Below, piece by piece: positions 5,665-61,290 of a stretch of DNA of 64,000 nucleotides. The translations under genes were made by a program, and so were the position numbers. Source of the DNA: Candidatus Eiseniibacteriota bacterium (GTDB lineage: Bacteria > Eisenbacteria > RBG-16-71-46 > SZUA-252). Below the pieces are notes generated by a model that saw only the letters and a list, made by a program, of their open reading frames with translations, was not told where the DNA came from and did not search any database. The stretch's first letter is position 1. Each line of letters begins with the position of its first letter. The stretch lies in contig DASTKC010000169.1 in assembly GCA_035716085.1 (NCBI GenBank), positions 11,162 to 75,161 on the forward strand, in the 5' to 3' direction.

Positions 5665-7341
<1,677 letters not shown>

Positions 7342-45235: not shown

Positions 45236-45274
45236 GGTCGGGAGCGGCAGCAGGCGATTTGTGAATTCATTCTC

Positions 45275-45294
45275 AACTTGCCCCGGGGCAAGTT
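45275..45294. repeat. Perfect palindrome AACTTGCCCCGGGGCAAGTT (copy 1)
   Basis: Intergenic, 12 nt upstream of the VOC gene ATG. Same 18-bp core as 59817..59834. Confidence 0.8.
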
Positions 45295-45305
45295 GACGAG
45301 GACCC

Positions 45306-45671
45306 ATGCCGATCCGCGGCGTCCATACGATGTTCTACACGTCGGAGCCCGAGGCGATGCGCGTCTTCCTGCGCGACAAGCTCGGGCTTCACGGCGTCGA
45401 CGTCGGCGGCGGCTGGCTGATCTTCGACGTCCCTGAGGCGGACATGGGCTGCCATCCCGCGGACCCGAACAGCGTCCATGGCGAGCCCTCCGGGACGAAC
45501 CACATCTCGTTCTACTGCGACGACGTGCGGAAGACGGTGGAGGAGCTGAAGGGGCGAGGCGTCGAGTTCGTGGACGGGATCGTGGATCGCGGCTACGGCC
45601 TCGTCACGCACTTCAAGGTGCCGGGTGGGTTCGAGGTCGAGCTCTACCAGCCGAAGTACGAGAAGGGTTGA
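45306..45671 (+). CDS. VOC/glyoxalase family protein
   Basis: 121 aa, single betaalphabetabetabeta-type module pattern (…VHTMFYTSEPEAMRVFLRDKLGL…). Confidence 0.65.
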   Translation: MPIRGVHTMFYTSEPEAMRVFLRDKLGLHGVDVGGGWLIFDVPEADMGCHPADPNSVHGEPSGTNHISFYCDDVRKTVEELKGRGVEFVDGIVDRGYGLVTHFKVPGGFEVELYQPKYEKG

Positions 45672-45683
45672 TCGCTCGAAGAA

Positions 45684-46430
45684 CTACGGGTGGGCCAGGA
45701 AGAAGTAGTTCAGCCGCCTTTCGAACTGCTCGATGAACTGATCGCGGGTCAGCGGCGAACGGCCAGCGAGCCAGTCCGGTAAGAGCGAGATGCGGAGCGG
45801 AGCCTCACCCAGGACATCGAATATCTCGCCCGCTCCGCTACCGAAATGATCCGCCCCGCCTAGGCCGCATTCGAAGAGCACGTGCGGTCGTTGGCGTCGC
45901 AGCATCTGAAGCCCTCCCCGGAACACTCCGAGCTCGGCTCCTTCCACGTCCACCTTCACCAGTTTCACAGGCACGTCCCGGGGCAAAACGCGGTCGAGCG
46001 TCTCGACCGTGACATCGATCTGGCGCCGGGTTTCGTTCCCCAGGTCCCGTTCCCGCGCGCTCAGCCCGCTCAACGCCGGATGCTCCACCATGCAATGGAA
46101 CACGGCCGAGCCAGGTTCGGAGCCGATCGCGTACGGATACACATTCATTCCGGGGAATCGCGCCTGAAGCTTCGCGAACTGATCCGGATTCGGCTCGAAC
46201 GCGAAGTGCTTCACCCCTGGAGCGAGTCGCATCATGTGCCGCAGGTAGGCGCCCTCGAACGAGCCGACATCGACGCCGATCCCTCCGCGCCGCAACACCC
46301 GCCGCATGACAGCGATTGTCTGGGAGTCGTAGAGGCTGCCCTTGTGCCCGGTCAGCTTGGCGTGGACGTAACGGAAGGGCTCTTCCCAACGGGTACCGAC
46401 GAGGGTTCGCTTGGCGAGGTCGGCGAGCAT
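45684..46430 (-). CDS. FkbM-family methyltransferase
   Basis: SAM motif-I region GIGVDVGSFEGAY and FkbM-like length/pattern. Confidence 0.7.
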   Translation of the reverse strand: MLADLAKRTLVGTRWEEPFRYVHAKLTGHKGSLYDSQTIAVMRRVLRRGGIGVDVGSFEGAYLRHMMRLAPGVKHFAFEPNPDQFAKLQARFPGMNVYPYAIGSEPGSAVFHCMVEHPALSGLSARERDLGNETRRQIDVTVETLDRVLPRDVPVKLVKVDVEGAELGVFRGGLQMLRRQRPHVLFECGLGGADHFGSGAGEIFDVLGEAPLRISLLPDWLAGRSPLTRDQFIEQFERRLNYFFLAHP

Positions 46431-46502
46431 TCGGGAAGTGTACCCGTGCCTGGCGGCGGCTTCCTAGGGGTCACCCTCGCTTGGCGCCGACGCGCCACCG
46501 GG

Positions 46503-47216
46503 TCACGTCACCGCAGGCTCCGCCTCCGTCTCCGCATGCTCCGCCGGGTCCCGGGCCCCCATGAAGGGCAGCCACAGCACCATCCCCAGCTCGCCGAAAT
46601 AGAGGGGCGACATCACCCGCGATACCGCCGCGATGTGCTCGGGGAAGGCGATGATCGTCACCGAAGTGACCACGTACCCCACGCCCGAGGCGAAGAGCAG
46701 GTATCCGAGGATCTTGGGGAAATAGCCCGACTTGATCGTCAGGATGCCAAACGGGAAGAGCCAGAGTCCCCAGAAGATGGTGAGGATGCGGGCGAGGTTG
46801 TTGCCCCAGAGGATCGAGCCCATGACCAGCGCGTCGAGCTGGGGCTTGGTGAACGCGGAGAGATAGCTCTCGCCGCTCAGGAGGATCAGCGGCGTCATCC
46901 GGTTCGCGATCGTCACGAGCTCCGCTGCGATCGCGACTCCTACGAGCCCCACCATCAATCGCGCGAGCGCGCGGTCGACGTCACGGAACAGCCGGTACAG
47001 CGTCAGCGCCACGACGACGAACAAGATCTGGGATACGAGCGAGATCAGGATGGTCAGGCGGTAGAGCGAGGCCCCGTCGGCAATGTTGCGGGCCGTCGTC
47101 GCAGCGTCGTCGGAGAGGAACCGGGAGGGGACGTACATGTAGCTGAAGATCATCAGGGCGGACATCACGACGTACAGGAATCCGGCGAGTCGGGCGGTCG
47201 ACTTGGGTGAGTCCAT
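46503..47216 (-). CDS. DUF4386-like polytopic membrane protein
   Basis: Six hydrophobic helices, …AGFLYVVMSALMIFSYMYV… pattern. Confidence 0.45.
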   Translation of the reverse strand: MDSPKSTARLAGFLYVVMSALMIFSYMYVPSRFLSDDAATTARNIADGASLYRLTILISLVSQILFVVVALTLYRLFRDVDRALARLMVGLVGVAIAAELVTIANRMTPLILLSGESYLSAFTKPQLDALVMGSILWGNNLARILTIFWGLWLFPFGILTIKSGYFPKILGYLLFASGVGYVVTSVTIIAFPEHIAAVSRVMSPLYFGELGMVLWLPFMGARDPAEHAETEAEPAVT

Positions 47217-47261
47217 GGCTTCCTCCAGCTACCGGCGAATTACGCCACCGCACCCCTCACG

Positions 47262-47684
47262 CTAGAAATCCGCCGCCTTCGTGGAGTCCAGCGGCGGCCG
47301 CCAGGTGCTATCCACCGGCGTCCCCCTCTCCTCGATCCAGATGTAGACGTCGGCTTCCTCCTCGTCCATGTGCAGGCGTTGCCCCTTCGGGAGCCGCTGG
47401 ATCTTGGACCACAGCTCGTCGATGTTGATGCGGTAGTCGTGAGCGAGGCCGATCTCGGACTTGAGGTTGAAGGCGTGCATATAGTCGAGCGCCTTCTTGG
47501 GCACGGTCACCGCCACGGTGGCCAGGTCCTTCCCGGGCTCCCAGACCTCGACTCGTACCACGGTGTCCCTGCCGTACCACCAGGGCTTGGGGTTCGGGAT
47601 GTCGAGGCGGGCCGTCCAGGCGTAGCCGATCCCGAGACAGACGAGGAGGCCCAAGGCCAGGGCTATCCAGAACTTGCGATTCAT
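47262..47684 (-). CDS. Hypothetical secreted/periplasmic protein
   Basis: N-terminal signal/anchor MNRKFWIALALGLLVCLGIGYAW. No family recognised. Confidence 0.4.
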   Translation of the reverse strand: MNRKFWIALALGLLVCLGIGYAWTARLDIPNPKPWWYGRDTVVRVEVWEPGKDLATVAVTVPKKALDYMHAFNLKSEIGLAHDYRINIDELWSKIQRLPKGQRLHMDEEEADVYIWIEERGTPVDSTWRPPLDSTKAADF

Positions 47685-47757
47685 GGATCTTCCTCCTCAT
47701 CCGCTCGGGACCGGCCGGGACCGCGAAGGGGGGACCACCGCGGAGCCCACCCCTCCT

Positions 47758-48615
47758 CTACGCCACCGAACGCTCCTCGGGTTTCAGGGCGACGCTCCGG
47801 GACCCGGCCACGCCCCGCCAGGCCATGGCCAGGGCGAGCGCCAGGCCGAAGGTCGTCACCACGGTCGCTCCCGTGGGCAGGTCGAAGTGGTAGGAGGCGA
47901 GCATCCCGCCGACGCTCACGAGCACCGCAACGATCCAGCCGACGATGAGGCGGCTTCGGGCGCGGTCGGCCAGCAGCATGGCGATCACCGACGGGACGAT
48001 CAAGTACGAGAAAACGAGGAGCACCCCGGCTACCGCCACCGACTGGGTCACGACCAGACCGAACGTGAGGTAGAAAAGGAAATCCCACCAGCGCACGCCG
48101 GCGCGGCTCAGCCCGGCCTCCGCCGGCCGGCCGTGCGTGATGGCGAAGAACGGCCGGCGCCAGATGAAGTGCAGGAAGCCGATCACGAGATAGAGCACGG
48201 CGAGCGTCGCGACTTCCTTGGGTGACGTTGCGAGCAGGTTGCCGACGAACATGAACTTGATGTGCTCGGCGCCTTCGGGCGTGCGGTCCACGATCAGGAT
48301 CGCGGCGGCCGCGGAGACGGCGTACACGATGCCGATGAAGGCTTCCTGCGGGATGCGCCGCTTCTCGGCCTTCAAGAGCGCGAGCAGACCGGCGCCCACG
48401 ACGACCGCCGCGATCGAAAGGTAGTGCGATGCGGGATCGTGGAGATCGAGCCCGAACAGGAACCCGATCGTCGCCCCGAGCGCCGCGACCTGGGCGAGCG
48501 CCAGATCGACGAAGATCACCCCACGCTCGACCACGTGGAATCCGAGATACGCGTGAATGCCCGCAATGACGACGCAGGCGAGGAGCGGCCAGAGAAGGAA
48601 CTGGAAGGCGTCCAT
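47758..48615 (-). CDS. Metal ABC transporter permease (ZnuB/MntB/TroC family)
   Basis: Start trimmed to MDAFQFLLWPL… ABC-3 permease pattern with about 8 TM. Confidence 0.8.
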   Translation of the reverse strand: MDAFQFLLWPLLACVVIAGIHAYLGFHVVERGVIFVDLALAQVAALGATIGFLFGLDLHDPASHYLSIAAVVVGAGLLALLKAEKRRIPQEAFIGIVYAVSAAAAILIVDRTPEGAEHIKFMFVGNLLATSPKEVATLAVLYLVIGFLHFIWRRPFFAITHGRPAEAGLSRAGVRWWDFLFYLTFGLVVTQSVAVAGVLLVFSYLIVPSVIAMLLADRARSRLIVGWIVAVLVSVGGMLASYHFDLPTGATVVTTFGLALALAMAWRGVAGSRSVALKPEERSVA

Positions 48616-49556
48616 CACGACCCCTTTCCCGTGAGCGCGTTCTGGATCAACCCGAGCTGGGCGTCGAAGAGGCCCAGGTAGCTCGTGACCTCCTTCGTCG
48701 CGCCAACCGAGGGAGGCAGGATGACGAGCGCCGCACCGGTGTTTCGGGCGATCTGCTGCGGCATCTTGGGATCGAAGTAGGGCTCGACGAGGAGGAGCTT
48801 CACGTTCTGGGCTTTCATCTCCGTGGTCAGATCCTGGATGTGCTTGGGCGTCGGCGGCACGCCCGGCTTCGGCTCGACGAAATCCATCACCTCGAATCCG
48901 AACGCGCGGGCGAAGTAGGGCCAGGAGCGGTGATACGTCACCACGCGCGTTCCGGTCAGGCCGATCGACTTCGCGCGCTGCTTCCACTCCGCCTCCTTGG
49001 CGCGGACCCGCTTCTCGAAGTCCGCGTACCGTGATGCGAAGGTCGGTGCGTTGGCGGGAGACACGCGGGAGAGTCCGTCGCGGATCGCCGCGGCCATGAT
49101 GATTCCGTTCTCGGGATCGAGCCAGTAGTGGGGGTTTCCGAGCGGGTGCACGTCGCCTTGCTCGCGACCGACCGGCCCGCCGAGCTCGAGGACCTGGATG
49201 TTCTTCGAGGCGTCCACGAAACCGGCGCCGCCGGGGAGGATCTTCGAATTGCGCGCGCTGTTGAGGAGGCCGGGCACCCAGCCCACTTCGAGATCGCGTC
49301 CCACCTCGACGAAGAGATCCGCCTTCTTCAGCTTCACGAGATAGCTCGGCTTGGCATCGACGAAGTGCGGATCCTGATAGCCCCTCGAGAGCGACTCCAC
49401 GGTCACGAGATCGCCGCCGACCTCGTTCGTGATCGAGGCGAGGTCCTCAGTGGTGGTGACGACGTTGATCTTCTTGTCCGCGCGCGCAGCGTGGGGCGCG
49501 GTCATGAGCGCGAGGGTGAGCAGCGGTAGCGCCCACCGTTTTGTGAATCGAGTCAT
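48615..49556 (-). CDS. Metal ABC transporter substrate-binding protein (ZnuA/TroA family)
   Basis: Signal peptide MTRFTKRWALPLLTLALMTAPHAARA. …KINVVTTTEDLASITNEVGGD…DPHFV…NPHYWLDP… is typical of cluster A-I SBPs. Confidence 0.8.
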   Translation of the reverse strand: MTRFTKRWALPLLTLALMTAPHAARADKKINVVTTTEDLASITNEVGGDLVTVESLSRGYQDPHFVDAKPSYLVKLKKADLFVEVGRDLEVGWVPGLLNSARNSKILPGGAGFVDASKNIQVLELGGPVGREQGDVHPLGNPHYWLDPENGIIMAAAIRDGLSRVSPANAPTFASRYADFEKRVRAKEAEWKQRAKSIGLTGTRVVTYHRSWPYFARAFGFEVMDFVEPKPGVPPTPKHIQDLTTEMKAQNVKLLLVEPYFDPKMPQQIARNTGAALVILPPSVGATKEVTSYLGLFDAQLGLIQNALTGKGS

Positions 49557-49570
49557 GGTCGGTCTCCTAT

Positions 49571-50749
49571 CTAGAACGGGTGCTGCCCGTGCGGGCCGAT
49601 GTTGAACGTGGTCTTGAAGAAGTAGCTCATCTCGCTTCCGTCGAAGTCGCGGTCCTGCCCCTGGAGGCTCAGCGACCAGAACTCGCTCGGAGTGAACGTG
49701 AGGAAGCCGAGGCCGCCGGTCGTCGTGTCGTCCGCGATCGCGTCGATCGCCTGCGACCAGTCGTAGCGGGCTCCGAGGTGCCAGCGCCGGGCGAACTGAT
49801 AGTCGGCCCAGGCGAACCCGCCGGTGCGGCGAGGTCCGTCGTCGGGGTCGCGAGCCATCCACTCGAACTGCGCCGTGAGCGAGCGATAGATCGCGCGTTT
49901 CGGATTCTTCCAACGGAACGTGGCGTCCGCGCCGTAGAGCTGGGCGCGCCGCGCGTCGGGAACCGCGAGCGGATCCACCGTTTCCGCCGGCCCGTTCGCG
50001 CCGTTGGCGTACGAGCCGCCCAAGGTGAGATTGGTCGTCTCGCCGAGATCGAAGAACGTCGACGCCCGCGCGAGATACAGGAGGTCCTTCCCGCGGTACT
50101 CGGCGAACGCCGGCACGCTCGTCGAGTCGGGCGTGTTCGTCACCTCGCCGTCGAAGTTGAGGTAGAAGGGAAGCGGCGCGAGCCAGGACACCGACGCCCC
50201 AATTCCAGAGAGCCCTTCCTCACCGAGGAACCGCTCCGCCGCGAGCGGACGATCCGCGAACGGCGTCTCCGGCGGGTGCGTGCGGTTGAACTTTCCGAAG
50301 TTGCTCCGGAATTTACCCAGCTTGGCCGTGAATCCCGCGGGCAACGTGAGGAGCGTGAGGTACCCCTCCTCGACGTCGATCCCTTCGTCCGGACTCACCG
50401 AGATGAAGAAGTCGGCGCGGCTGTACGGGTCGACGGTGGCCTGGTATCCCAGCTCGACCTCGCGGAGCTGGAACGCGCTCGTGTCGGTCCGGTCGAGCGC
50501 GTCGCCGGCCTGACCCTGAAACCATCCGATCGCGCTGATGTTCGGGTTGAGCAAATTCGAGCCCGCGGGCGGCGCCGTGACGCCACCGGACGCCGGCGAA
50601 TCCACGGGCGTGGTTTGCGTCGCGGCCGCGTCGGGCGCGGACACCGTGCTGTCGGAGAACGAGGACGATTCCTGAGCGATCGCGAAGCCCGCGGCGCTTG
50701 AGACCAGCGCGACGGCGAGCACGGCGATCGCCCATGCGTGGTAACGCAT
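49571..50749 (-). CDS. Outer-membrane beta-barrel porin (putative metal/anion uptake porin)
   Basis: Signal peptide. Alternating beta-strand pattern. C-terminal …GPHGQHPF (terminal Phe). Immediately upstream of znuA-like gene. Confidence 0.5.
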   Translation of the reverse strand: MRYHAWAIAVLAVALVSSAAGFAIAQESSSFSDSTVSAPDAAATQTTPVDSPASGGVTAPPAGSNLLNPNISAIGWFQGQAGDALDRTDTSAFQLREVELGYQATVDPYSRADFFISVSPDEGIDVEEGYLTLLTLPAGFTAKLGKFRSNFGKFNRTHPPETPFADRPLAAERFLGEEGLSGIGASVSWLAPLPFYLNFDGEVTNTPDSTSVPAFAEYRGKDLLYLARASTFFDLGETTNLTLGGSYANGANGPAETVDPLAVPDARRAQLYGADATFRWKNPKRAIYRSLTAQFEWMARDPDDGPRRTGGFAWADYQFARRWHLGARYDWSQAIDAIADDTTTGGLGFLTFTPSEFWSLSLQGQDRDFDGSEMSYFFKTTFNIGPHGQHPF

Positions 50750-50820
50750 GAACGTGCCTCCTCTATTCGATTGTCGTGTGAAGCGTGGACCGGCGGACCG
50801 CGCCGGGAAATCGGGGAGAG

Positions 50821-51099
50821 CTAGGTCTGAGGAGGTCCGCGTCCCGTGGGGGCCGCGAGGAGGAGTGCGGGGCTTTCGACGACGACGGCGTCAGCGAGTC
50901 GCTCGGGAGGCGAATCGAGTCGAGGCGGCTCCAGCGGCGAGACGACGTCCACCTGGCTCGCCTGCAGGTCCTTGCAAATCTGACACGGCGGGCCCGGGTG
51001 CTCGTGGAGCACGGCCGATCCCAGCCACGCTCCGAAGAGGAGCAGGGCCAGGAGGGCCATCGCGCGGGATGTCGTTCGAGAGCGCATCATCGTGTCCAA
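50821..51099 (-). CDS. Small secreted His/Cys-motif protein (HEHPGPPCQICK)
   Basis: Signal peptide (MALLALLLFGAWLGSAV). HxH + CxxC. Possible metal-binding. Real start probably the internal Met (about 51060). Confidence 0.35.
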   Translation of the reverse strand: MDTMMRSRTTSRAMALLALLLFGAWLGSAVLHEHPGPPCQICKDLQASQVDVVSPLEPPRLDSPPERLADAVVVESPALLLAAPTGRGPPQT

Positions 51100-51139
51100 C
51101 CGTACCAGCGACCCGCCGGTTCCTGCAACCGTCCGGGCC

Positions 51140-51310
51140 CTAGCCCTTCCGGGCCGCCACGATCATGCCCACCCCCCAGACGATGAGGAGCGCCGGCCAG
51201 TAGCGGAGGAGGTTCCCGTGGAGGTATCCGAACTCCTTCAGGAGGAGGAGGATTCCGACCGCGATCAGCGTGAGGGGAAACGCGATGCTCATGCTTCCTT
51301 TGCCGGGCAT
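51140..51310 (-). CDS. Small membrane protein (56 aa; LiaI/LiaF-N-terminal-like). Not in ORF track.
   Basis: Translated by eye: MPGKGSMSIAFPLTLIAVGILLLLKEFGYLHGNLLRYWPALLIVWGVGMIVAARKG. AGGAG RBS about 7 nt upstream. Two TM helices. Confidence 0.35.
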   Translation of the reverse strand: MPGKGSMSIAFPLTLIAVGILLLLKEFGYLHGNLLRYWPALLIVWGVGMIVAARKG

Positions 51311-51345
51311 CCTCGGGGCTCCTGGGTGGTGGGGTGGCTTCGCCG

Positions 51346-52269
51346 CTAATTCTTCGGGGGCTCTTGGCGCTGGACGCGAATCCGCATGAGATGGCCGCCG
51401 ACGTGGATCACGGTCAGCGGTCCCTTGCCTTCCGCGGTCCAGAAGGCCGCCTTGCCCTTCACGCGTCCGCTCACATGCTCCGTGAAGTCGTTGGTGAACG
51501 AATGCCAGGTGAGCGGGGAGTCGTATTCGACGCGCGCCGCGGCATCCGGGGGCAGCGTGATCTCGACATTCGAGAGGAGTCCGTGCACGTTGATCATTCG
51601 CGGCCGGACCTGACCCACGGCGAGGCGCACGGACGAGCTGATGGCCTTGATCTCGGCTTCGTCGAGGGCGTCCTCACGGAGATTGATCGTCCCGAACGCG
51701 AAGTAATTCGATGAGCGAAGCGACACGCGCTGATGCTCCGGGAGCCTCGCGTCCACGATGCTGCCGAAGAGGCTCATGTCCCCGGCGATGGGCGTCGTGG
51801 GCCACACCAGGTAGCCCACGCCGTTCTTCGCCTCGTAGCCGTGCGCGATCATGTCCTTCCCGAGAATGCTCTTGGCGTTCATGCGCGCTTCATCGGGATC
51901 GCCGGGCTGTGTATGGATCGCGAAGGAACCTCCCACCGCGCGCTGCTGGACCCGGAGCATGCGGATGCCGGGATTCGTGAAGTTGATCACCGTGGCCTGC
52001 GTCGGCGGGAGGCCCATCTCCGTGTGCTTGGAGATCCACCATCCCCCGAACACGAAGGCGGCCGCGACCAGGGCGAGTGCGAAAACGCCGAGAAGTGCGT
52101 TCTTGAGAGCGTTGGCGAGGAGGGCGAGGCCGAAGCCGACGAGGAGCACCGGCCAGAAGCGGGCGAGCCACGGCCAGACGCCATGGGGGAGATAGCCCAG
52201 GGCCGCGCCGAGAAGGAGCGCTCCCATTCCGACCAGGAAGAACCCGAAGACGAGCTTCCCGAATCCCAT
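51346..52269 (-). CDS. LiaF-like protein: N-terminal TM domain + DUF4097 (toastrack) beta domain
   Basis: Four N-terminal TM helices followed by repetitive beta-rich C-terminal region. By-eye family call. Confidence 0.5.
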   Translation of the reverse strand: MGFGKLVFGFFLVGMGALLLGAALGYLPHGVWPWLARFWPVLLVGFGLALLANALKNALLGVFALALVAAAFVFGGWWISKHTEMGLPPTQATVINFTNPGIRMLRVQQRAVGGSFAIHTQPGDPDEARMNAKSILGKDMIAHGYEAKNGVGYLVWPTTPIAGDMSLFGSIVDARLPEHQRVSLRSSNYFAFGTINLREDALDEAEIKAISSSVRLAVGQVRPRMINVHGLLSNVEITLPPDAAARVEYDSPLTWHSFTNDFTEHVSGRVKGKAAFWTAEGKGPLTVIHVGGHLMRIRVQRQEPPKN

Positions 52270-52394
52270 GTGGCACTACGGGTACCACGCGGGCGAGCGG
52301 GTTGCAAGCAGCGAGAGGACGGCTGAGTGCGCGGCCCAAGGAGATCGAGGTGAGAGCGGGATCGAGCCGGGCAAGACACATCGTGGGCCGTGGA

Positions 52395-52787
52395 ATGGCG
52401 CTGGCTGCCGCCGCGATCGTGGTCGCGACGGCTGGCTGCATGAGCGGCGTGCGCTCGCCCATGGAGCACGAGATCACGAAACGGGTCACCCCCGAGAAGC
52501 CGGAATTCGATATCGAAGGCTGGACCGACAGCACGGGAACCCACCACAAGCTCCACGGCCGCGCCCGAATCGTCGGCGATTCGATCCAGCTCTACCAGCG
52601 GAACTACGTGACCAACGCAAACCCAACGGTTACCACCAAGCTGGTGGCGACCGTACTGAGGTCGGACGTCGCGGAAGTGACCGTCGAAAGGTTCGACCCG
52701 GTGAAAACTGGGATGCTCCTCGCCACACCAGTGTTGCTCTACGGGCTGCTCATCCTGATCATCGTCTCAAGTGGGTACGAGCCGTAA
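52395..52787 (+). CDS. Hypothetical lipoprotein with C-terminal TM anchor
   Basis: MALAAAAIVVATAGC lipobox. C-terminal LLATPVLLYGLLILIIV. Confidence 0.4.
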   Translation: MALAAAAIVVATAGCMSGVRSPMEHEITKRVTPEKPEFDIEGWTDSTGTHHKLHGRARIVGDSIQLYQRNYVTNANPTVTTKLVATVLRSDVAEVTVERFDPVKTGMLLATPVLLYGLLILIIVSSGYEP

Positions 52788-52977
52788 GTAGCTGTCTTAT
52801 AGCGGCTAACCCGCCATTACCCACGCCATATCGTCCAAATTAAGGTACCTAAACTTTTTCTTGCCTCGCCGGATTCGAGCGGGCATTCTCCCCGAGTTGC
52901 TAGTGCTTAACTTTTTCGGCTGCTGACGAGGGGCGGCCGGCCCGGCTCTCGGACCCGAAAGGAACTCGACTCCCCGC

Positions 52978-54105
52978 ATGCGCTCCAAGCCCTTCGCCGC
53001 CGCCCTGCTCGCCGCCGCCGTACTGACGATGACTTCGAGCTTCGCCGCCGCCCAGGACTCCATCGAGGACAAGCTCCACTTCTCCGGCTACGGCGAGGTC
53101 CATTACAACAGCCACGAGCTTTCGGAGAATGGAATCATCGAGAACGATCCGCCCGCCGAGGTCGACGTGCATCGCTTCGTGCTCGGCTGGCGCTACGACT
53201 TCACCCCGAAGATCCGGATGGATGCAGAAGTGGACTTCGAGCACGCGGCGACGGAGATCGAGCTGGAGTACGCGTACCTCGAATACGATCTCGCGGCGGC
53301 GACCAGCCTCCGCGCCGGTGCGGTGCTCATGCCGATCGGGCCGCTCAACGAGTTCCACGAGCCGCCCAACTACTATTCGGTCGAGCGGCCGTACGTGGAG
53401 AGCTCGATCATGCCGACCACGTGGCAGGAGATCGGGATCGGTCTCGTGGGACGGCTCGGCGGCGGAGGGTTAGGGTATCGCGCGTACGTGGTCACGGGGC
53501 TCAATGCCTCCGGTTTCGATACGTTCAACGGCATCCGCGAGGGACGCGGACACGGGGCCGAGGCGCCCGCGGAAGATCTCGCGGGTGTGGCCCGGCTCGA
53601 GTACTCGACGAAGAACGGTCTCAACCTCGGCGGCTCCGCCTACTACGGCGGCGCGGACCAGGGGGACTCGACCCTCGGCGACGTCACCGTCACGATCCTG
53701 AACGCGGACGCTCGATTCCGACGCGCCGGATTCGACCTGAAGGGCGTCCTCTATCACGAGTCCGTCGGCGACGCCGACGTGCTGAGCAACGAGCTGGGAA
53801 CCACGATTGGAGAGTCGATGCTCGCCTGGTACGGCGAAGCGGCGTACGACGTCCTGCGGCGGGACCGCGAGGGATCGAGCGGCCGCGCCCTTTTCCTATT
53901 CGGTCGCTATGAAGACTTCGATACGAACACGGACGTTCCGACTGGCTTCGTCGCCAATCCCGCCGCCAACCGTACCGTGATCACCGGCGGCGTCTCCTAC
54001 ATGCCAATCGACAAGATCGCGTTCAAGGCGGACGTCGAGCACTGGACGGACGACACCGACGCCGATCTCACGCGCTTCAATCTCGGCGCTGCGTTTCAGT
54101 TCTAG
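52978..54105 (+). CDS. Outer-membrane beta-barrel porin (OprO/P-like)
   Basis: Signal peptide MRSKPFAAALLAAAVLTMTSSFAAA. Beta-strand periodicity. C-terminal …NLGAAFQF. Confidence 0.5.
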   Translation: MRSKPFAAALLAAAVLTMTSSFAAAQDSIEDKLHFSGYGEVHYNSHELSENGIIENDPPAEVDVHRFVLGWRYDFTPKIRMDAEVDFEHAATEIELEYAYLEYDLAAATSLRAGAVLMPIGPLNEFHEPPNYYSVERPYVESSIMPTTWQEIGIGLVGRLGGGGLGYRAYVVTGLNASGFDTFNGIREGRGHGAEAPAEDLAGVARLEYSTKNGLNLGGSAYYGGADQGDSTLGDVTVTILNADARFRRAGFDLKGVLYHESVGDADVLSNELGTTIGESMLAWYGEAAYDVLRRDREGSSGRALFLFGRYEDFDTNTDVPTGFVANPAANRTVITGGVSYMPIDKIAFKADVEHWTDDTDADLTRFNLGAAFQF

Positions 54106-54690
54106 ATGAAGGAGAGCACCATGCTTTCGAAACTTGCGAAGTCCGCGCTTCTCGCCGCGGTCCTCGGTAACGTCTCGATTCCGGCCGCCCAAGCGGGCAC
54201 GCCCCGCGCCGCGCAGGCTGGCGGGCCGGCGGCGGCGGCGACGGAGCCCGCTCCGTTCGCCCGCGTCTATCTTGCCATTCGCGGCTGCACGTCCTGCGCG
54301 CACTGCCGCACCGCGATCCGCCAGATGGTGAACACGAAGTCCGCCGGCGGCGAAGCGCGCCTGAGCGCTGATCAGGTCGAGGTTCGATATCCTAAGCCGA
54401 GCCCGGTGCCGCTCAAGGACGTGATCCACTCGCTCGCGGAGAACCGCCTCCACGATCTGAGCCTCGTCGACGTGCTCTTCGAAGCCCGCGGGACGATCGC
54501 TCCGGGTCCGAACGGCACCGCGACCTTCAAGCTCTCCGAGACGGGGCAAGCGTTCCCCATCACGATCGACCGCGCGGTGCGCCGGCCGGTGGACGGCACG
54601 GCCGTGCACCTCACGGCGGTCGTGGACGGATGGCGAACCAAGGACAAGTCGGGCCTCTCGCTCGCCGCGCGTACGATCGAGACGAACTGA
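54106..54690 (+). CDS. Secreted protein with CxxCxxC motif (possible metal-binding)
   Basis: Signal peptide. YLAIRGCTSCAHCRTAI. Begins 1 nt after the porin stop (operon). Confidence 0.4.
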   Translation: MKESTMLSKLAKSALLAAVLGNVSIPAAQAGTPRAAQAGGPAAAATEPAPFARVYLAIRGCTSCAHCRTAIRQMVNTKSAGGEARLSADQVEVRYPKPSPVPLKDVIHSLAENRLHDLSLVDVLFEARGTIAPGPNGTATFKLSETGQAFPITIDRAVRRPVDGTAVHLTAVVDGWRTKDKSGLSLAARTIETN

Positions 54691-54770
54691 CGGGACCTCG
54701 TTCCCGGGTTGACAAGACCGGGGCTTGCTCTCAGAATTCGCACCCGTCCAAGGACTTACAAGGAGGTGCC

Positions 54771-55520
54771 GTGGATGATCTGAGGGGCAAGTCGGCGCTC
54801 GTCACCGGCGGAACGCGTGGAATCGGCAAGGCCATCGCGCTCGCGCTCGCGGACATGGGCGCGGACGTCGCGATCAACTTCTTCCGAAGCCGCGAATCGG
54901 CCAAGGCCGCCGTCGCGGAGATCCAGGCGAAGGGCGTCAAGGCTCTCGCGGTGCGCGCGAACATGGGAAACGAGGAACAGATCCCACCCATGTTCGAAGA
55001 GATCAAGAAGAGCTTCGGCAAGCTCGACATCCTCGTCTCGAACGCCGCGCTCGGACACTTCGGCAACGTCCTCGAGGTGACCGACAAGATGTGGGACGTG
55101 GCCATGGCGACCAACGCCAAGGCGCTCCTCTTCTGCGCGCAAGAAGCCGCCAAGATGATGCCGGAAGGCGGCAAGATGGTCGCACTCACCTCGCTCGGCT
55201 CGCACCGCTACATCCCAGGGTACGCCGCGATCGGCGTCTCCAAGGCGGCCATCGAGACGCTCGTGCGGTATCTCGCCTACGAGCTCGCGCCGCGGAAGAT
55301 CAACGTGAACGCGGTGTCGGGCGGGTTCATCGACACCGACTCGCTCAAGATCTTCCCGAGCTACGACCAGATCATCCGGGAATCGACCGCGCGGACGCCG
55401 TTCGGACGGGTGGGCACGCCGGAGGAGGTCGCGAACGTCGCCGCGTTCCTGTGCACCAGCCGGGCATCGTGGGTAACGGGGCAGGTCCTGATCGTGGACG
55501 GGGGCTACACGCTGGGGTAG
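54771..55520 (+). CDS. SDR-family oxidoreductase (FabG/FabL-like)
   Basis: AAGGAGG RBS then GTG. TGGTRGIGKAIA Rossmann motif, NAA, YAAIGVSKAA catalytic Tyr-x3-Lys. Confidence 0.8.
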   Translation: MDDLRGKSALVTGGTRGIGKAIALALADMGADVAINFFRSRESAKAAVAEIQAKGVKALAVRANMGNEEQIPPMFEEIKKSFGKLDILVSNAALGHFGNVLEVTDKMWDVAMATNAKALLFCAQEAAKMMPEGGKMVALTSLGSHRYIPGYAAIGVSKAAIETLVRYLAYELAPRKINVNAVSGGFIDTDSLKIFPSYDQIIRESTARTPFGRVGTPEEVANVAAFLCTSRASWVTGQVLIVDGGYTLG

Positions 55521-55524
55521 GACG

Positions 55525-56043
55525 CTAGCGGTGGCGCGCCGACCACCAACCCGTAAGGCGCGTGCTTCCCAAGAACGCGGCCAGCTTCTGGTCGAAGAGC
55601 AGAAACGCCGTGATCCCGAGATTCACGATGCTCGCGACGACGACGTATCGGACGAGCGTCACCATTCCGCCGAATTCGGGCGGCCGCGTGATGAGGTAGG
55701 CCAGAACCGCGATCTGGCTCAGCATTGCGAACACCACCCCCCACGATCGCGCGGGGCGCTTTCCCAGCCACAAAGCGCCCATCACGTAGAAGTTCCCCGC
55801 CGTGAGCACTGCAGAGAAGAGAAGGCTCTGGATCGCGACCTGGAGCGCGTAGCCGAAGAGGAGCCCTTTGGTGGCCTGCGCGTAGACGTAGAAACCGGTT
55901 CCGAGGATCCCGCGCAGAAGCTCCTCGGCTCCCTTGATCGCCCAGAGCGCGGTGAGCGCCCAGACCTGCCACGGGCGATCCACGGTGCGAGCCTCCCGCA
56001 TGCGGCGGGCCTCGATCCGCTCGCGAGCGCCCCCGGGCGAAGC
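55525..56043 (-). CDS. Hypothetical membrane protein
   Basis: Four hydrophobic helices. Start uncertain (ATG 56043 or 56001). Confidence 0.3.
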   Translation of the reverse strand, partial: ASPGGARERIEARRMREARTVDRPWQVWALTALWAIKGAEELLRGILGTGFYVYAQATKGLLFGYALQVAIQSLLFSAVLTAGNFYVMGALWLGKRPARSWGVVFAMLSQIAVLAYLITRPPEFGGMVTLVRYVVVASIVNLGITAFLLFDQKLAAFLGSTRLTGWWSARHR

Positions 56044-56051
56044 CATCTCGG

Positions 56052-56531
56052 CTACACCGCCGCCATCACGGTGATCGTCGGCTCGTGCCGTACGGGGAAG
56101 TTCACCGAGGCGGCGATGAAGCATTCGGCGTGCGCGTCCTCGTGCAGCGCCCGCGCCTTCTCGGCATCCGAGCCGGCCGCGAGTGTGACGCGCGGCTTCA
56201 GGAGCACGTCCGTGAACTTGAACGTCCGTCCGCCCGCGCGCTCCATCACGCCGGAGGCGTCGTCCTCGTAGGAGATCACCTGGATCTTCGCGCGCGCGCA
56301 GAGCGCCGCGTAGCTCAGGAAGTGGCACGCGGAGAGCGCCGCGACGAGCAGATCCTCCGGATCGTGAATCGCCGGATCCCCCCGGAACACGGCGGCCGAG
56401 GACATCTTGAGCGAGGGCTTGCCCGGGAAATCGACGCGAACCTCGCGCGAGTACGTTTCGTACTTCACGATCGGGCCCTCGCGGGCACCGGTCCAGACGA
56501 GTCTGCAATCGAAGCGATGGGACGGGGGCAT
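56052..56531 (-). CDS. OsmC/Ohr-family peroxiredoxin-like protein
   Basis: About 159 aa, …LVAALSACHFLSYAALCA… with conserved Cys pair spacing of the OsmC family. Confidence 0.7.
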   Translation of the reverse strand: MPPSHRFDCRLVWTGAREGPIVKYETYSREVRVDFPGKPSLKMSSAAVFRGDPAIHDPEDLLVAALSACHFLSYAALCARAKIQVISYEDDASGVMERAGGRTFKFTDVLLKPRVTLAAGSDAEKARALHEDAHAECFIAASVNFPVRHEPTITVMAAV

Positions 56532-56551
56532 CGGTGGTTCCTCCTGCGGCC

Positions 56552-57880
56552 CTAGGCCACGGCGGTCCTGGCGTGCGCGGTCTCGAGATCGCGGTCGAGC
56601 GAGCGCGGCAGCCGCCGGCGCAAATCCAGGAATCCGACCGCGGCCAGGAACGCGAGCGCCATGATCACGCTCCAGACGATGAGCGGCCGGCCGTGGAACG
56701 AGTCGAGAAGGGCGCCCCCCACGACCGGTCCGAGCGACCACCCGATCGAGTTGAAGACGCCGAAGAGTCCCATGTAGCGCCCCCGCGTCGTCTCGCCCGA
56801 GAAGTTCGCCACGAGCTGGAGCGAGGGGGGCGTCGCGATGATCTCCCCGAGCGACACGACGAACGTCGCGACGATCAAGAGCGCCATCCCCCGGCCCCAA
56901 CCCATCATGCCATATCCGAGGCCGTAAAGGACCGCACCCAGCGCGAGCGACGTCGTGAGCCGGAGCGTGCGCGTGAGCTTGACCGCAGGGAACTGGAGGA
57001 ACACCACAGTGAGCCCGTTCAGGGCGTAGAGCGTGCCGAGCTGTATCTTGGTGAGCCCGCCCCACTCCACCGCGTAGACCGACAGCGTCACGATGAGCTG
57101 CGCCATCACGACGAAGAGGACCGTCGAAACGAGGAGATAGCGAAGGAAATTCGGCTCGCGGAGCGCCCTCAGGGATTCCTGGAATTGGAATTTGGGCGGC
57201 GCGGCGGCCTGCCCGATGTCGGGGATCTCCGCGATGCCCGGTTCAGGTCGTGGCCTCCGGCGGCGATGCATCGGTGACGTCTCTTCCACTGCGAACGCCA
57301 TGATCGAGGCCGCGCCGAGCATGACGCCGGAGCCGACCAGGAAGAGGGACGAGTAGGAGAGCGCCGCGAGAAACCCGCCGATCGCGGGTCCGAGCGCCCA
57401 GCCAAGGTTGCCTGCGATCCTGAGCACGCCGTAGTACTCCGCCTGGCGGTCCGCCCCGGCCATGTCGGCGACCATCGCGCCCGACGGCGGCTCGAACATG
57501 CGCCCGCCGAACGCGCTCAACGACGTCGCGAGCACGAAGACGTAGAACGGTGCGTGCGTGAGCACGGCGAAACCGAGCGATGCGAACGCGGCCGCGCGGA
57601 GGAGCTGCGACGCGATGAGCACGATTTTCCGGCCGCTTCGGTCGCTCCACTCGCCTCCCACAACCTGGCCGAGCGCGCCCCCGAGCGCCGCGATGAGGAA
57701 GAGCGCGCCCACCGCGGTCATGGGAATGCCGCGCGTGCCGTGGAGGTAGAGGCTCAGGAACGGGAGGACGATCGCGAATCCCGTCGAGCTCAAGACGCGC
57801 CCGACGAAGAGGTGCAGGAGCCGCCGATCCTCCTCGAAGAGGAGCCGGCGGGGGAAAAGGGTGTCGATCCAGCGGAGCAT
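56552..57880 (-). CDS. MFS transporter
   Basis: 12-TM pattern, …GEWSDRSGRK… MFS motif A. Confidence 0.8.
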   Translation of the reverse strand: MLRWIDTLFPRRLLFEEDRRLLHLFVGRVLSSTGFAIVLPFLSLYLHGTRGIPMTAVGALFLIAALGGALGQVVGGEWSDRSGRKIVLIASQLLRAAAFASLGFAVLTHAPFYVFVLATSLSAFGGRMFEPPSGAMVADMAGADRQAEYYGVLRIAGNLGWALGPAIGGFLAALSYSSLFLVGSGVMLGAASIMAFAVEETSPMHRRRRPRPEPGIAEIPDIGQAAAPPKFQFQESLRALREPNFLRYLLVSTVLFVVMAQLIVTLSVYAVEWGGLTKIQLGTLYALNGLTVVFLQFPAVKLTRTLRLTTSLALGAVLYGLGYGMMGWGRGMALLIVATFVVSLGEIIATPPSLQLVANFSGETTRGRYMGLFGVFNSIGWSLGPVVGGALLDSFHGRPLIVWSVIMALAFLAAVGFLDLRRRLPRSLDRDLETAHARTAVA

Positions 57881-57916
57881 GGCCAAGCGTATCACAAACG
57901 CAGTAGGCTCCCGCCG

Positions 57917-58798
57917 ATGCTGCCGGTCGATGGTGTCGTCGCGGGATACAACCTCGTCCTCGCACTCGTGTGGCTCGGACTTCGCGACCGCGCGCCACAC
58001 GCGTGGGTGGTCGCGCTGTGCCATCTCGTCGCGGCGGGCTTGCCGTGGCTCTTCGCTGGGGCGCGCCCGCGGGGCGTGTGGCGCGCGGTCCGGGAAGGCT
58101 ATCCGCTCGTCGGATTTGCCGTGTTCTGGGGAGAGCTGGGCGTCGTGCAGCGCCTGCGCGGACTGCCGCCGCACGACGAGGCGATCCGCGCGCTGGATCT
58201 CCGTTTGTTCCACGCGCACTGGAGCGATCTGTGGATGGCACGCATGCCTTACCTTGCGCTCCAAGAGGTGATGTTCTTCTGCTACTTCCTCTACTACTTC
58301 CTACTGGTCGTGCCGCCCGTCGCGATTGGCGTGGCGCGCGGGTGGAAGGCGTTCCGATCGGTCGTGCTCGCGGTGATGCTCACGTATCTGAGCTGCTTCC
58401 TCTTCTACATCGCGTTTCCCGTCTACGGTCCGCGTGCGATGGCCGCGGGCATGGCCACGCCGGCGGTCGGCTTCTTCCACACGCTCGTCGAGCGTGCCAG
58501 AGAGAGCGGGGACTCGCTCGGCACCGCCTTTCCGAGCTCGCACGTCGCAGGGGTTGTGACCATGGCGGTGATGGGGTGGCGGTGGCTCGGCCGTGGCTGG
58601 GGGTTCGTGCTCGCGGTAGCCGCCCTGGCCGTCGCTCTCTCGACGGTCTACACGGGAAACCACTACGTGGTCGACGCAGTCGTGGGTGCCCTCTGGGTCG
58701 TGCCGCTCCAGCTCTGGATCCAGCCGATCTTGGAGCGAAGGGACGTAGGACTCCCTCGCCCGGAACGGGCCGACGCAGAGCTGCCCCGCTCGCTATAA
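57917..58798 (+). CDS. PAP2-family (type 2 phosphatidic acid phosphatase-like) membrane protein
   Basis: PAP2 motifs PSSH (FPSSHVAG) and …NHYVVDAVVGAL (SRxxxxxHxxxD-type). Confidence 0.75.
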   Translation: MLPVDGVVAGYNLVLALVWLGLRDRAPHAWVVALCHLVAAGLPWLFAGARPRGVWRAVREGYPLVGFAVFWGELGVVQRLRGLPPHDEAIRALDLRLFHAHWSDLWMARMPYLALQEVMFFCYFLYYFLLVVPPVAIGVARGWKAFRSVVLAVMLTYLSCFLFYIAFPVYGPRAMAAGMATPAVGFFHTLVERARESGDSLGTAFPSSHVAGVVTMAVMGWRWLGRGWGFVLAVAALAVALSTVYTGNHYVVDAVVGALWVVPLQLWIQPILERRDVGLPRPERADAELPRSL

Positions 58799-58811
58799 TC
58801 TTCGGTCCGCC

Positions 58812-59807
58812 ATGAGCCCCGAGCCGAACGACATCCGGATGGACGACCTCCGTCCCTGGCGCCCGCCCGCCCGCGGGGAGGCGCTCGCGCATTACCCGGC
58901 CACGGACAAGGTCCTGCCGCTCGGGGAAGCGCTCGCTCGGTTCGTCCCTGACGGCTCGACCGTCGCCCTCGGCACGTGCCTCGAGCAAATGATCCCCTTC
59001 GCCGCCGCGCACGAGCTGATCCGTCGCGGCGCCCGCGACCTCACGCTCGTCGGCCCCGTCTCCGACATCGCCTTCGACCAGCTCATCGGCGCCGGGTGCG
59101 CGCGCCGCGTGGCGGCCGCGTGGGTCGGGAACGTGATGATGGGGATCGCCTACTCGTTCCGGCGCGCTGTGGAACGGGGAGCGCTCGAGGTGGTCGAGTT
59201 CTCCAACTTCACGCTGGCGCAGGCGCTCCACGCGGCCGCGATCGGCGCTCCGTTCATCCCTACCCGCTCGACGCTGGGCACCGATCTCATCGCGCGGAAT
59301 CCCTGGCTCCAACCGATCGAGGATCCGCTCGGCGGCGGGCCATTGCTCGCCGTGAAGCCGCTCCATCCGGACGTGACGATCGTCCATGTGCAGCGCTCCG
59401 ATCCGCACGGGAACGCGCAGATGTGGGGAAGCCTGGGTATCACGCTGGACGCGGCCCGCGCCGCGCGCGCGGTGATCGTGACGGCGGAGGAGATCGTCGC
59501 GCCCGAGCAGATCCGCCGCGATCCCAATCGCGTGGTGATTCCCGGGCTCGTCGTCGCGGCCGTGTGCGAGTCGCGGTGGGGCGCGCATCCGTCGCCGGTG
59601 CAGGGCTACTACCGGCGCGATCACGAGGCCTACTCCGACTACCACGCCCGCACGAAGACCGAGGAAGGCTACGCCGCGTGGCGAGGGGAGTGGGTGGACG
59701 CCGTGCGCGATCTCGCCGGCTACCTCGCGCGGCTCGGAAACGAGCGCGTGGCCTCGCTGATTCCGCTGGAGCACCACTACGCGGAGCCCGTCGACTATGG
59801 GTACTGA
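58812..59807 (+). CDS. CoA-transferase family protein (glutaconate/3-oxoacid CoA-transferase subunit A-like)
   Basis: …GSTVALGTCLEQMIP…LTLVGPVSD… resembles CoA_trans A subunits. No B subunit adjacent. Confidence 0.65.
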   Translation: MSPEPNDIRMDDLRPWRPPARGEALAHYPATDKVLPLGEALARFVPDGSTVALGTCLEQMIPFAAAHELIRRGARDLTLVGPVSDIAFDQLIGAGCARRVAAAWVGNVMMGIAYSFRRAVERGALEVVEFSNFTLAQALHAAAIGAPFIPTRSTLGTDLIARNPWLQPIEDPLGGGPLLAVKPLHPDVTIVHVQRSDPHGNAQMWGSLGITLDAARAARAVIVTAEEIVAPEQIRRDPNRVVIPGLVVAAVCESRWGAHPSPVQGYYRRDHEAYSDYHARTKTEEGYAAWRGEWVDAVRDLAGYLARLGNERVASLIPLEHHYAEPVDYGY

Positions 59808-61290
59808 CGCGAGGTCACTTGCCCCGGGGCAAGTCGTCGAGCCCGTTGTGCGCCCGCTACCTCCCGAGTGGACACCGCTCCGGGCACTCGAGATCGTGGG
59901 CCGTGACCCCTACACGCTCTTCTTCGAGAGCGGCGGGCCAGCCGGTGAGGCGAGCGAGTGGACGATCCTCGCCTTCGATCCCCTGTACCGGCTCGTGCTG
60001 CGCGATGGACGGCTTCGACGGATGGACCCCGGCGGCTCGGATCACGAGCTCGACGGGCATCCGCTCGACGCGCTAGCGCGTGCCTGGCCGGCGCCTGTTC
60101 ACGCGGCTGAGGGCCAGGCCGCCGAGATCCCGTTCATCTCCGGCCTCGCGGGCTACCTCTCCTACGACCTCAAGGATTGGATCGAGAGATATCCATCCCA
60201 CGCGGTGCGCGATCTCGACTTCCCGGGCCTCTCGCTCCGGTTCCACGACGTGGTGTGGGCCTGGAAGCGGAGCACCGGCGAGGGTTGGGTCGTTTCGACC
60301 GGGTTGGCGGGAGACGAAGAGGGCCGGACCGCGAATCTCGCATTTCGCGCCGGCGCCCGTCTGGCCGAGCAGTGGATCTTGTTCAAAAAGGAAATGGGGC
60401 GCACACCCGAGCGGACTTCGGTTCCGACGCGGCCGACCACGGTCACGTCCACGTTCACCCGGCTCACGTACGAATCCATGGTCGCGCGAGCACTCGAGTA
60501 CATCGCGGCTGGTGACATCTACCAGGTGAACCTGGCACAGCGATTCCGCGTCGAGCCCGTGCCGCCGGCCCTGGATGTCTACCGCGCGCTGCGCACGATC
60601 GCCCCCGCGCCATTCCTGGCTTTTGCTTCGCTTCCCGACGGCGGCATTGCCAGCTCCTCACCGGAGCGCTTCTTCCGCATCAAAGGCCGCACGATCGAGA
60701 CCTGGCCGATCAAGGGCACGCGCCCACGAGGCCGGACGCCGGAGGAGGATGCACGCCTCCTGGCGGAGCTTCGCGCCAGCGCCAAAGACCACGCCGAGAA
60801 CGTGATGATCGTGGACCTGGAGCGAAACGACCTCGGCCGGGTGTGCGAGACAGGCTCGGTCCGCGTCCCGGCGCTCTGCGACGTCGTGTCGCACTCGAAC
60901 GTGCATCACCTCGAGTCTCGGGTGGAGGGCACGTTGCGTGAGGATGCTCACCCCGTGGACGTGCTGCGCGCGCTCATGCCCGGCGGCTCGATCACGGGCG
61001 CTCCCAAGATCCGCGCGGTCGAGATCATCGACGAGCTCGAGCCCGTGCGGCGAGCCGTATACACGGGAGCGATCGGATACTGGGACGTCCGCGGCGGGTG
61101 CGACTGGAACATCGCCATCCGCACCATCTCGGTCGTGGATGACGTCGCCTACTTCCACGCCGGGGGCGGCGTGGTCGCGGACTCGACCCCGGCCGGCGAA
61201 TATGAAGAGACGCTCGTCAAGGCGAGCGGCATGATGCGCGCGCTCGGCGTCGACGCGCACGCCTTGGACGAGGCGCTCGCGCGGCCGTGA
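59797..61290 (+). CDS. Chorismate-binding enzyme (aminodeoxychorismate synthase/anthranilate synthase component I)
   Basis: C-terminal chorismate-binding domain (…SSPERFFRI…GAPK…, …[17 protein letters not shown]…). Start ATG 59797 or GTG 59848. Confidence 0.8.
59817..59834. repeat. Perfect palindrome ACTTGCCCCGGGGCAAGT (copy 2)
   Basis: Identical 18-bp core to 45277..45294. Lies between CoA-transferase stop (59807) and an alternative GTG start (59848) of the chorismate-binding enzyme gene. Confidence 0.8.

Follow-up and report, generated by a model that had tools for sequence, protein, structure and literature searches.

Short palindromes that recur in bacterial genomes are known from several systems. 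The repetitive extragenic palindromic (REP) sequences and REPINs of Escherichia coli, Pseudomonas, and Stenotrophomonas are scattered, for the most part between genes and at times in clusters that mix several types, with variants that keep their symmetry and with a cognate gene, RAYT, that has repeat copies beside it and encodes a HUH/Y1 transposase. Palindromes of 13–16 bp are also the sites of the ParB–parS, Noc–NBS, and KorB–OB systems, in which a few residues of the recognition helix switch the specificity of ParB and Noc between related palindromes and in which a site may lie inside the gene of its own protein, as parS does within spo0J of Bacillus subtilis. Rickettsia palindromic elements (RPEs), of about 100–150 bp and with no known cognate protein to our knowledge, sit in frame in coding genes where the added peptide is tolerated, and the dRS3/NIME repeats of Neisseria, of about 20 bp with conserved inverted ends and a variable interior, form intergenic mosaics that act as recombination targets. 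Finally, HNH homing endonucleases and McrA-like enzymes have a conserved HNH catalytic core and are encoded by solitary genes in varied contexts. Here, we analyzed a window of 64,000 nucleotides from a Candidatus Eiseniibacteriota bacterium (the whole stretch of contig DASTKC010000169.1 under study, assembly GCA_035716085.1) that carries two copies of the 18-bp perfect palindrome ACTTGCCCCGGGGCAAGT. This element is a dispersed palindromic repeat with a probable cognate nuclease gene, unusual in that the gene holds its own presumed sites in frame in a disordered linker and in that a putative one-residue code accompanies the type of site.

The two exact copies of the 18-mer in the window lie at 45276–45293 (site 1) and at 59817–59834 on the plus strand (site 2). 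No third copy appears even when up to three mismatches are allowed, the 12-mer core TGCCCCGGGGCA is found at the same two places only, and none of 100 dinucleotide shuffles of the window contains a match, so that a chance origin of the pair was rejected, in keeping with an earlier note on this DNA that had judged such a recurrence very unlikely by chance (its coordinates hold for site 2 and are one base off for site 1, which it had placed at 45277–45294). Site 1 extends to a 24-bp perfect palindrome, TCAACTTGCCCCGGGGCAAGTTGA (45273–45296, no strand assigned), and is intergenic; at site 2, which lies inside a gene, the symmetry is limited to the 18-mer. Because the 64-kb window contains no gene of the HNH family described below, both copies are solo.

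Scanned for exact matches, the GTDB representatives, with one genome per species, yielded 135 copies on 115 tiles from 50 species-level genomes, about 10 chance matches being expected in the scanned collection by our own estimate. Candidatus Eisenbacteria holds 88 of the 135 copies, in 28 metagenome-assembled genomes (MAGs), followed by Elusimicrobiota (14 copies in five MAGs) and Limnocylindria (6 copies in two MAGs), and the single copies found in other phyla may be due to chance. The number of exact copies in a species genome goes from 1, as in L028, a complete chromosome of 4.16 Mb, to a maximum of 18, reached by one MAG, as against tens to hundreds for REPs: the motif is thus dispersed, an outcome that the earlier note had named as speaking against a regulatory role, but its copy number is low to moderate rather than high. 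The flanks of the copies are unrelated beyond ±2 nt, and since CA and TG prevail at these flanking positions (kept in 63–83% of the arms), we take the repeat unit to be the 22-bp palindrome CAACTTGCCCCGGGGCAAGTTG, with the 18-mer as its core. Whereas a REP is an imperfect palindrome with a 5′ GT[AG]G foot, this unit is perfect and lacks such a foot, and its exact sequence is shared across phyla. Longer arms are found in particular lineages: two MAGs have CACG...CGTGAAACGCC, for example, and Elusimicrobiota have TTATCCACA...TGTGGATAA, which suggests that the copies were amplified from lineage-specific master copies.

With regard to these arms, the Elusimicrobiota copies (L005, L058, L073, L077, and L088) extended to TTATCCACA-palindrome-TGTGGATAA look like DnaA boxes, and in L073 and L088 two such units flank a gene of the HNH family in direct orientation. 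An association with DnaA boxes through the TTATCCACA flanks was nevertheless set aside in favor of a lineage-specific arm extension, since the opposite flank is the complement. Similarly, the recurrent GTGAAACGCC flank of two MAGs was read as a lineage-specific extended unit, and not as an association with parS.

The coding context of the copies was established from rough open reading frame (ORF) calls combined with a signature-based assignment, which replaced a windowed GC-periodicity classifier that proved too noisy. Whereas REPs are essentially extragenic, 47 of the 135 copies (35%) lie here in the linker of one family of ORFs of about 400–480 aa, recognized by tblastn and signature motifs and labeled by NCBI or JGI as “HNH endonuclease signature motif containing protein” or “McrA”; no other protein family was found to carry the palindrome within or beside its own gene, although regulators were not sought systematically in the window. 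The linker copies always read (Q/E)LAPGQV and form up to five tandem copies, all in frame, with spacings that are multiples of three and array periods of 36, 48, 60, and 63 nt within the ORF. In this they recall RPEs, but the unit measures 18–24 bp and is tied to a nuclease family, and an in-frame location in the gene's own linker also separates them from REPs. A CRISPR array was considered and rejected, as the arrays are coding and in frame and as the spacers of the arrays with 63- and 60-nt periods (L068 and L109) are not unrelated but diverged copies of each other. The remaining copies lie either between genes or, in frame, in segments of other genes that are variable or disordered, and many of the 135 copies are close to the end of a contig, as is usual for repeats. 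Among the intergenic solo copies with two called neighbors, 14 stand between convergent, 22 between tandem, and 4 between divergent genes (the gene calls being rough), so that divergent promoter regions are their rarest setting.

One could suppose that LAPGQV is a functional short linear peptide motif whose DNA identity is a by-product, as the same frame is used in the HNH family, in a ParB, and in the chorismate-binding enzyme that holds site 2. Yet the nucleotides are identical despite the rare codons CTT, CAA, and GTT, the five codons of LAPGQ being written this way with P = 3.6e-4 under the codon usage of the window. The palindrome is shown by this, and by the sister palindromes described below, to be conserved at the DNA level. 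In addition, most copies outside the family are intergenic, the segment is predicted to be disordered, and the peptides HAPGHV, HAPAHV, and EGAPGHL are unrelated as peptides but all translate related palindromes. A selected peptide thus appears scarcely credible as the source of the repeat.

In the HNH family, a ParB/KorB-like helix-turn-helix (HTH) domain at the N-terminus is joined to an HNH nuclease domain and to a tail that resembles RuvA domain III. Modeled by AlphaFold2 on an alignment of 46 sequences, the protein shows a confident helical N-terminal domain (residues 11–133), a disordered linker (134–185) that comprises exactly the palindrome-encoded residues, the HNH domain, and C-terminal helices. 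The best structural match of the N-terminal domain is to the DNA-binding domains of ParB, KorB, and Noc, whereas Pfam ParBc matches none of the 46 members and no ParB N-terminal CTPase domain was detected in a family whose neighbors are unrelated housekeeping genes. A suspected membership of this domain in DUF222 was unsupported by Pfam and is not claimed. The nuclease domain has the beta-beta-alpha-Me core of the HNH superfamily, with its His/Asn/His residues and zinc-binding cysteines, and the alignment gives D289–H290, H312–N313, C270, and C309 as invariant. It matches HNH families of PHROGs (E down to 6e-7) and, by fold, McrA, Gme HNH, and GVE2 HNH, when Pfam HNH and RuvA_C are each found in 11 of the 46 members, HNH below threshold. 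PADLOC gave no match to a known defense system.

Family members are solitary among unrelated housekeeping genes, in varied genomic contexts, and reach four paralogues in one MAG; the family is horizontally spread. Its conserved core, its PHROGs and fold matches, and its solitary genes liken it to homing endonucleases and McrA-like enzymes, but classical homing endonuclease genes interrupt and destroy their target, when the presumed target is here kept, and multiplied, inside the gene. A phage or plasmid origin was dismissed, as the IMG/VR viral contigs contain no exact copy of the palindrome and as the protein finds only weak, HNH-restricted matches on PLSDB plasmids and no other relatives there.

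The fold of the N-terminal domain may also be taken to mean that the palindrome is a host chromosome-organization site in the manner of parS, NBS, or matS, devoted to segregation, nucleoid occlusion, or silencing and bound by a ParB/Noc/KorB-like protein, the HNH genes only carrying copies of it. Indeed, 1–18 copies per genome is the range of parS and NBS, parS is likewise a conserved palindrome that can lie in parB (the spo0J case), and one copy of our repeat lies in a parB beside three parS sites, where it is read in frame as QLAPGQV in the predicted disordered N-terminal linker of ParB (L008, 4838–6888). However, conservation of the sites at orthologous positions does not extend past very close relatives, and the sites decay; their number swings from one on a complete chromosome to 18 in a MAG; several specificity types coexist; and the gene of the candidate binder, which is multi-copy, stands in varied contexts, and encodes a conserved nuclease active site, has a selfish rather than a housekeeping look. 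In this regard, the likeness with the ParB and KorB systems lies in the HTH fold and in the palindromic sites, and the differences in the HNH and RuvA-III-like domains that stand in place of a CTPase domain, in a 22-bp site set in linker-coding arrays, in the patchy distribution of a multi-copy family, and in the fact that we found no evidence of a segregation role. On this basis, we regard a chromosome-organization site as improbable. A general association with parS was examined as well and rejected, parS-like sites being present on three tiles, in the clearest of which the association is accounted for by the position of the palindrome in frame within parB. The L008 locus itself has three near-perfect parS sites upstream of parA and a fourth inside parB.

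The palindrome belongs to a wider set built around the core TGCCCCGGGGCA, whose sister types differ by symmetric changes in the bases beside it, CT in the A type (to which the window copies belong), CA in the B type (written CAACATGC...), and GG in the C type (written GAAGGTGC...), and which tolerate a change of the center from CCGG to CTGG or CCAG. The linkers of 120 homologues use a small vocabulary of peptides (LAPGQV, HAPGHV, HAPAHV, HALAHV, LAPGRV, EGAPGHL, and similar), and in homologues selected without regard to the palindrome the peptides QHAPGHV, QHAPAHV, QHALAHV, and EGAPGHL are encoded by near-perfect sister palindromes. Sister palindromes such as CAACATGCCCCGGGGCATGTTG, CAACATGCGCCGGCGCATGTTG, and AAGGTGCCCCGGGGCACCTT form arrays with 36- or 48-nt periods in these homologues, and they colocalize with the A type, with 106 members of the set in 773 kb of palindrome-bearing tiles and none either in shuffles or in 476 kb of control loci.

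Residue 69 of the protein, within the otherwise invariant helix LSEDAA-X-KRIQAARAAR, tracks the type of palindrome carried by the linker of the same gene: it is Tyr or Phe in 57 of 59 A-type genes, Ser, Ala, or Leu in all 41 B-type genes, and Lys in all 10 C-type genes. Between A- and B-type genes, the mutual information of residue 69 amounts to 0.87 bit and that of any other column of the folded domains to at most 0.27, and the types are interspersed on the tree of the folded domains. The pattern is repeated in 20 further homologues, and the palindrome-bearing family genes in which the helix is covered (about 25 translated tiles) all have Tyr or Phe at this position. Residue 69 thus looks like a specificity determinant of a putative recognition helix, in which the pairing of Lys with GG would be chemically sensible.

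Units of mixed or partial structure were observed among these palindromes (L054, 2987–3021, and P0103), for example a 15-nt slipped duplication that yields LAPGQVAPGQV and a half-A/half-B unit that yields HAPGQV. Such units hint at slippage or exchange at the center of the palindrome. Another locus, L016, packs six sister palindromes of the CAAC...GTTG family within 270 nt (5984–6260), on a MAG labeled Bacteroidota (MAG293) whose binning may be wrong.

These sister palindromes also bear on the possibility that the repeat is a REP-like selfish or structural hairpin without a dedicated binder, for instance an mRNA 3′-end stabilizer or terminator-like punctuation, to which the linker of the HNH genes would be merely a permissive, recombination-prone harbor. 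The symmetric, compensatory variation and the tolerated change of center fit a stem-loop, and site 1 is predicted to fold as RNA into a stable hairpin with a 10-bp stem and a 4-nt loop (−14.3 kcal/mol). Different palindromes gather in clusters reminiscent of the mosaic elements of REPs (BIMEs), as in the MAG JBOHUC, where mixed clusters occupy long non-coding stretches. Convergent gene ends are over-represented (14 vs. 4 divergent), and the frequent proximity to contig ends agrees with this explanation too. It gives no account, however, of a residue in a DNA-binding-like helix that tracks the palindrome type of the same gene, of the concentration in the linker, which we put at several-hundred-fold by estimate rather than by computation, or of the exact 22-mer found across phyla amid unrelated flanks. 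As for punctuation, site 1 has neither a U-tract nor a terminator-like match, and in four relatives (L201–L204) a distinct terminator-like hairpin stands between the palindrome and top6A, the gene that precedes site 1. A hairpin without a binder thus seems unlikely to us.

The earlier note had itself proposed a REP-like hairpin as a fallback, and this proves close as far as behavior is concerned, since the repeat is dispersed, hairpin-capable, clustered, decaying, and found at gene ends, but not as regards the GT[AG]G foot and the copy numbers of REPs. Its remark that the palindrome lacks the U-tract of an intrinsic terminator was correct, as no T-run follows either window copy, and no terminator-like site was found in 44900–45700. 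Site 1 was also considered as a sigma-70 promoter or an intrinsic terminator, and neither was found there, when Rfam covariance models searched over 44800–60300 on both strands gave no match at E ≤ 1.

The comparison with REPs extends to the keeping of symmetry among variants, to the multi-type clusters, and to a cognate nuclease-type gene with repeat copies beside it, as in L036, although the protein is here an HTH–HNH nuclease. In that locus (200–2400), inverted repeats that contain the palindrome stand on both sides of a family gene whose own linker has none, and a 24-nt tandem repeat (cttcgattccggctgcggcg...) lies between two upstream palindrome copies. The clusters of JBOHUC and the indels that border site 1 (see below) likewise recall the clusters and recombination-linked edges of dRS3/NIME. 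The sequence and host are however different, and dRS3, which does not lie within ORFs, goes with a Piv/IS110-type recombinase and with phage integration instead of an HNH protein.

The two window copies inform on the age and fate of solo sites. Site 1 is 40 nt past the stop codon (45233–45235) of top6A (44147–45235, plus strand, 362 aa, identified by Pfam) and, as the earlier note had described, lies between this stop and the start of a VOC/glyoxalase-family gene (45306–45671, plus strand, Pfam), 12 nt ahead of its ATG at 45306. According to gene lengths and synteny in relatives, top6A is the end of a conserved block, and gene content varies to the right of the palindrome. The window itself belongs with the Eisenbacteria carriers of the repeat: tile L041 (Eisenbacteria SMAG_U1378) is 95% identical to it over 7.7 kb, and L061 is 90% identical. 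Site 1 is present in both, as well as in L201, L203, and L204, and has one mismatch in the otherwise identical L202. It is confined to this closest clade, since in relatives with a Top6A identity of 95% or lower the palindrome is missing and other genes lie downstream. The VOC gene, complete in the window, is truncated at its 5′ end in L041, with a breakpoint 8 nt after the palindrome, and is absent from L061 and L201–L204, where the sequence diverges 2 nt after the palindrome. Two independent indels therefore end 2 and 8 nt from site 1, and site 1 marks a break-prone edge of a region of variable content. The VOC/glyoxalase gene is accordingly a presence/absence polymorphism among close relatives (window 45306–45671; L041 7709–7850; L061 about 3240), and an FkbM methyltransferase gene and a DUF4386 gene are inserted at this locus by comparison with more distant relatives. 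In view of the indels, an integron attC or Xer-type site was considered at site 1 and abandoned, as the variable genes are not bordered by a second site and no recombinase turned up; the indels were kept under the broader idea of a break-prone site.

These observations speak directly to the main claim of the earlier note, namely that the palindrome is the operator of a local dimeric transcription factor for the VOC and chorismate-binding enzyme genes. What recommends it is the perfect symmetry, the position of both copies near gene 5′ ends, and a few other solo copies located 15–110 nt upstream of likely starts. However, relatives with a truncated VOC gene or none still have site 1, which in L061 and L201–L204 stands between convergent genes with no start downstream, and for this reason it is not the VOC operator. 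Furthermore, site 1 has no sigma-70-like promoter, site 2 is inside a coding sequence, for both sites the orthologous promoters hold either no palindrome or a decayed one in relatives that are only slightly more distant, the sites are least frequent in divergent promoter regions, and the sequence is a dispersed repeat of 50 genomes with a third of its copies in the coding sequences of one family. An operator is thus highly improbable, and neither window site would regulate its neighbor. The argument drawn by the earlier note from the 9+9 symmetry, that a dimeric protein binds the palindrome, retains its value for the binder, which is probably dimeric, if transferred from a regulator of the adjacent genes to a domain of the HNH family.

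Site 2 lies at the junction of a CoA-transferase family gene (58812–59807, plus strand) and a TrpE/PabB-like chorismate-binding enzyme gene (59797–61290, plus strand), both identified by Pfam. It had been placed between the stop of the former and a likely GTG start of the latter, a position that does not hold: the ATG at 59797 overlaps the CoA-transferase stop in the 11-nt sequence ATGGGTACTGA (59797–59807), and in 33 of 34 relatives the frame from this ATG runs without interruption as far as the chorismate-binding domain, with an N-terminus of varying length. Given this open frame, site 2 most probably corresponds to codons 8–13 of the enzyme, read as LAPGQV, within its length-variable N-terminal stretch and its first 13 codons. 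The window, L116, and L117 are about 85% identical in DNA around site 2. The 18-mer is exact at the same place in L116, L117 has ACTGGCCTCGGCGCAAGT instead (LASAQV, three mismatches) with 18 extra bases, and more distant relatives (about 83% CoA-transferase identity) have nothing similar. Comparison with relatives thus shows both window copies to be young, lineage-specific, and already decaying in relatives. The 11-nt start/stop overlap ATGGGTACTGA is itself retained in the 33 of 34 metagenomic relatives, which suggests a translational coupling of the CoA-transferase and chorismate-binding enzyme genes.

Among the explanations weighed above, we consider it rather probable that the window 18-mers are orphan copies of the cognate site of the HNH family, REP-like in behavior. 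The palindrome would most likely be the cognate site of the Tyr/Phe-69 members of this ParB/KorB-HTH–HNH family, and its binder is probably the ParB/KorB-like domain of the mobile HNH family, not a regulator of the neighboring genes. Under this reading, the N-terminal domain, probably as a dimer, would read the palindrome, with one residue of its helix setting the type, as the covariation suggests, and the HNH domain may nick or cut at or near bound sites, perhaps on an extruded cruciform, with regard to the RuvA-III-like module. Break repair and slippage could then give rise to arrays in the linker of the nuclease itself, to indels beside solo sites, and to new solo copies. The latter would persist only where they are harmless, in intergenic positions, preferentially at gene ends, or in disordered or variable protein segments in LAPGQV, the single frame that is tolerated, before decaying by point mutation. 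Site 2 would accordingly represent six codons added at the N-terminus of the chorismate-binding enzyme, and any local consequence, for example of an mRNA hairpin 12 nt ahead of the VOC start codon, would be incidental.

Several points weigh against this interpretation. The case for a link between protein and DNA consists of covariation and of a similar fold. Since no more than about 260 nt separate codon 69 from the linker, co-inheritance within a recombination block could mimic the covariation, and the residues around position 69 are too invariant to exclude such a linkage block at the protein level; in addition, a few genes are mixed or non-matching (AB types, and P0253 with Tyr and HAPGHV). 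We obtained no pair of an empty and a filled site in which the insertion boundary was clean, nor did we see a target-site duplication, and DATEND and JBAZKS carry several solo copies with no family gene in the fetched tiles. The gene calls behind the orientation counts are, as said, rough.

Going one step further, we tentatively raise the possibility, in which we place less confidence, of an undescribed selfish DNA system: a nuclease family with arrays of its own site in its linker DNA and a one-residue specificity code, which would seed solo palindromes, including in frame in housekeeping proteins, and create rearrangement hot spots, as an HNH-based counterpart of REP–RAYT in several soil phyla. 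No prior description was found in the searchable literature on the sequence, on the peptides, on the combination of DUF222, HNH, and palindrome, or on Eisenbacteria repeats. If the link between protein and palindrome is true, thousands of unannotated “HNH endonuclease signature” proteins of uncultivated soil bacteria would gain a predicted target and a one-residue code, and the presence of a protein's binding sites inside the coding sequence of its own disordered linker would constitute a new arrangement. This would also explain short in-frame insertions such as LAPGQV or HAPGHV and local gene-content breakpoints in Eisenbacteria, and programmable palindrome-specific HTH–nuclease modules could have practical interest. 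For annotation, the consequence would be that such palindromes at gene starts are not to be taken for operators.

Outside these subjects, further features of the window deserve mention. The top6A gene belongs to a bacterial top6B/top6A (topoisomerase VI) operon at about 42480–45235, whose position next to a gene for an ATPase of the type II secretion system E type (T2SS-E) is conserved in relatives, and the listed 962-aa ORF from 42347 is an over-extension, Top6A itself measuring 362 aa. At 8771–10555, in-frame tandem coding repeats with a 144-nt period comprise at least eight units of 60–76% identity, in a gene that probably encodes a repeat-domain (propeller-like) protein.

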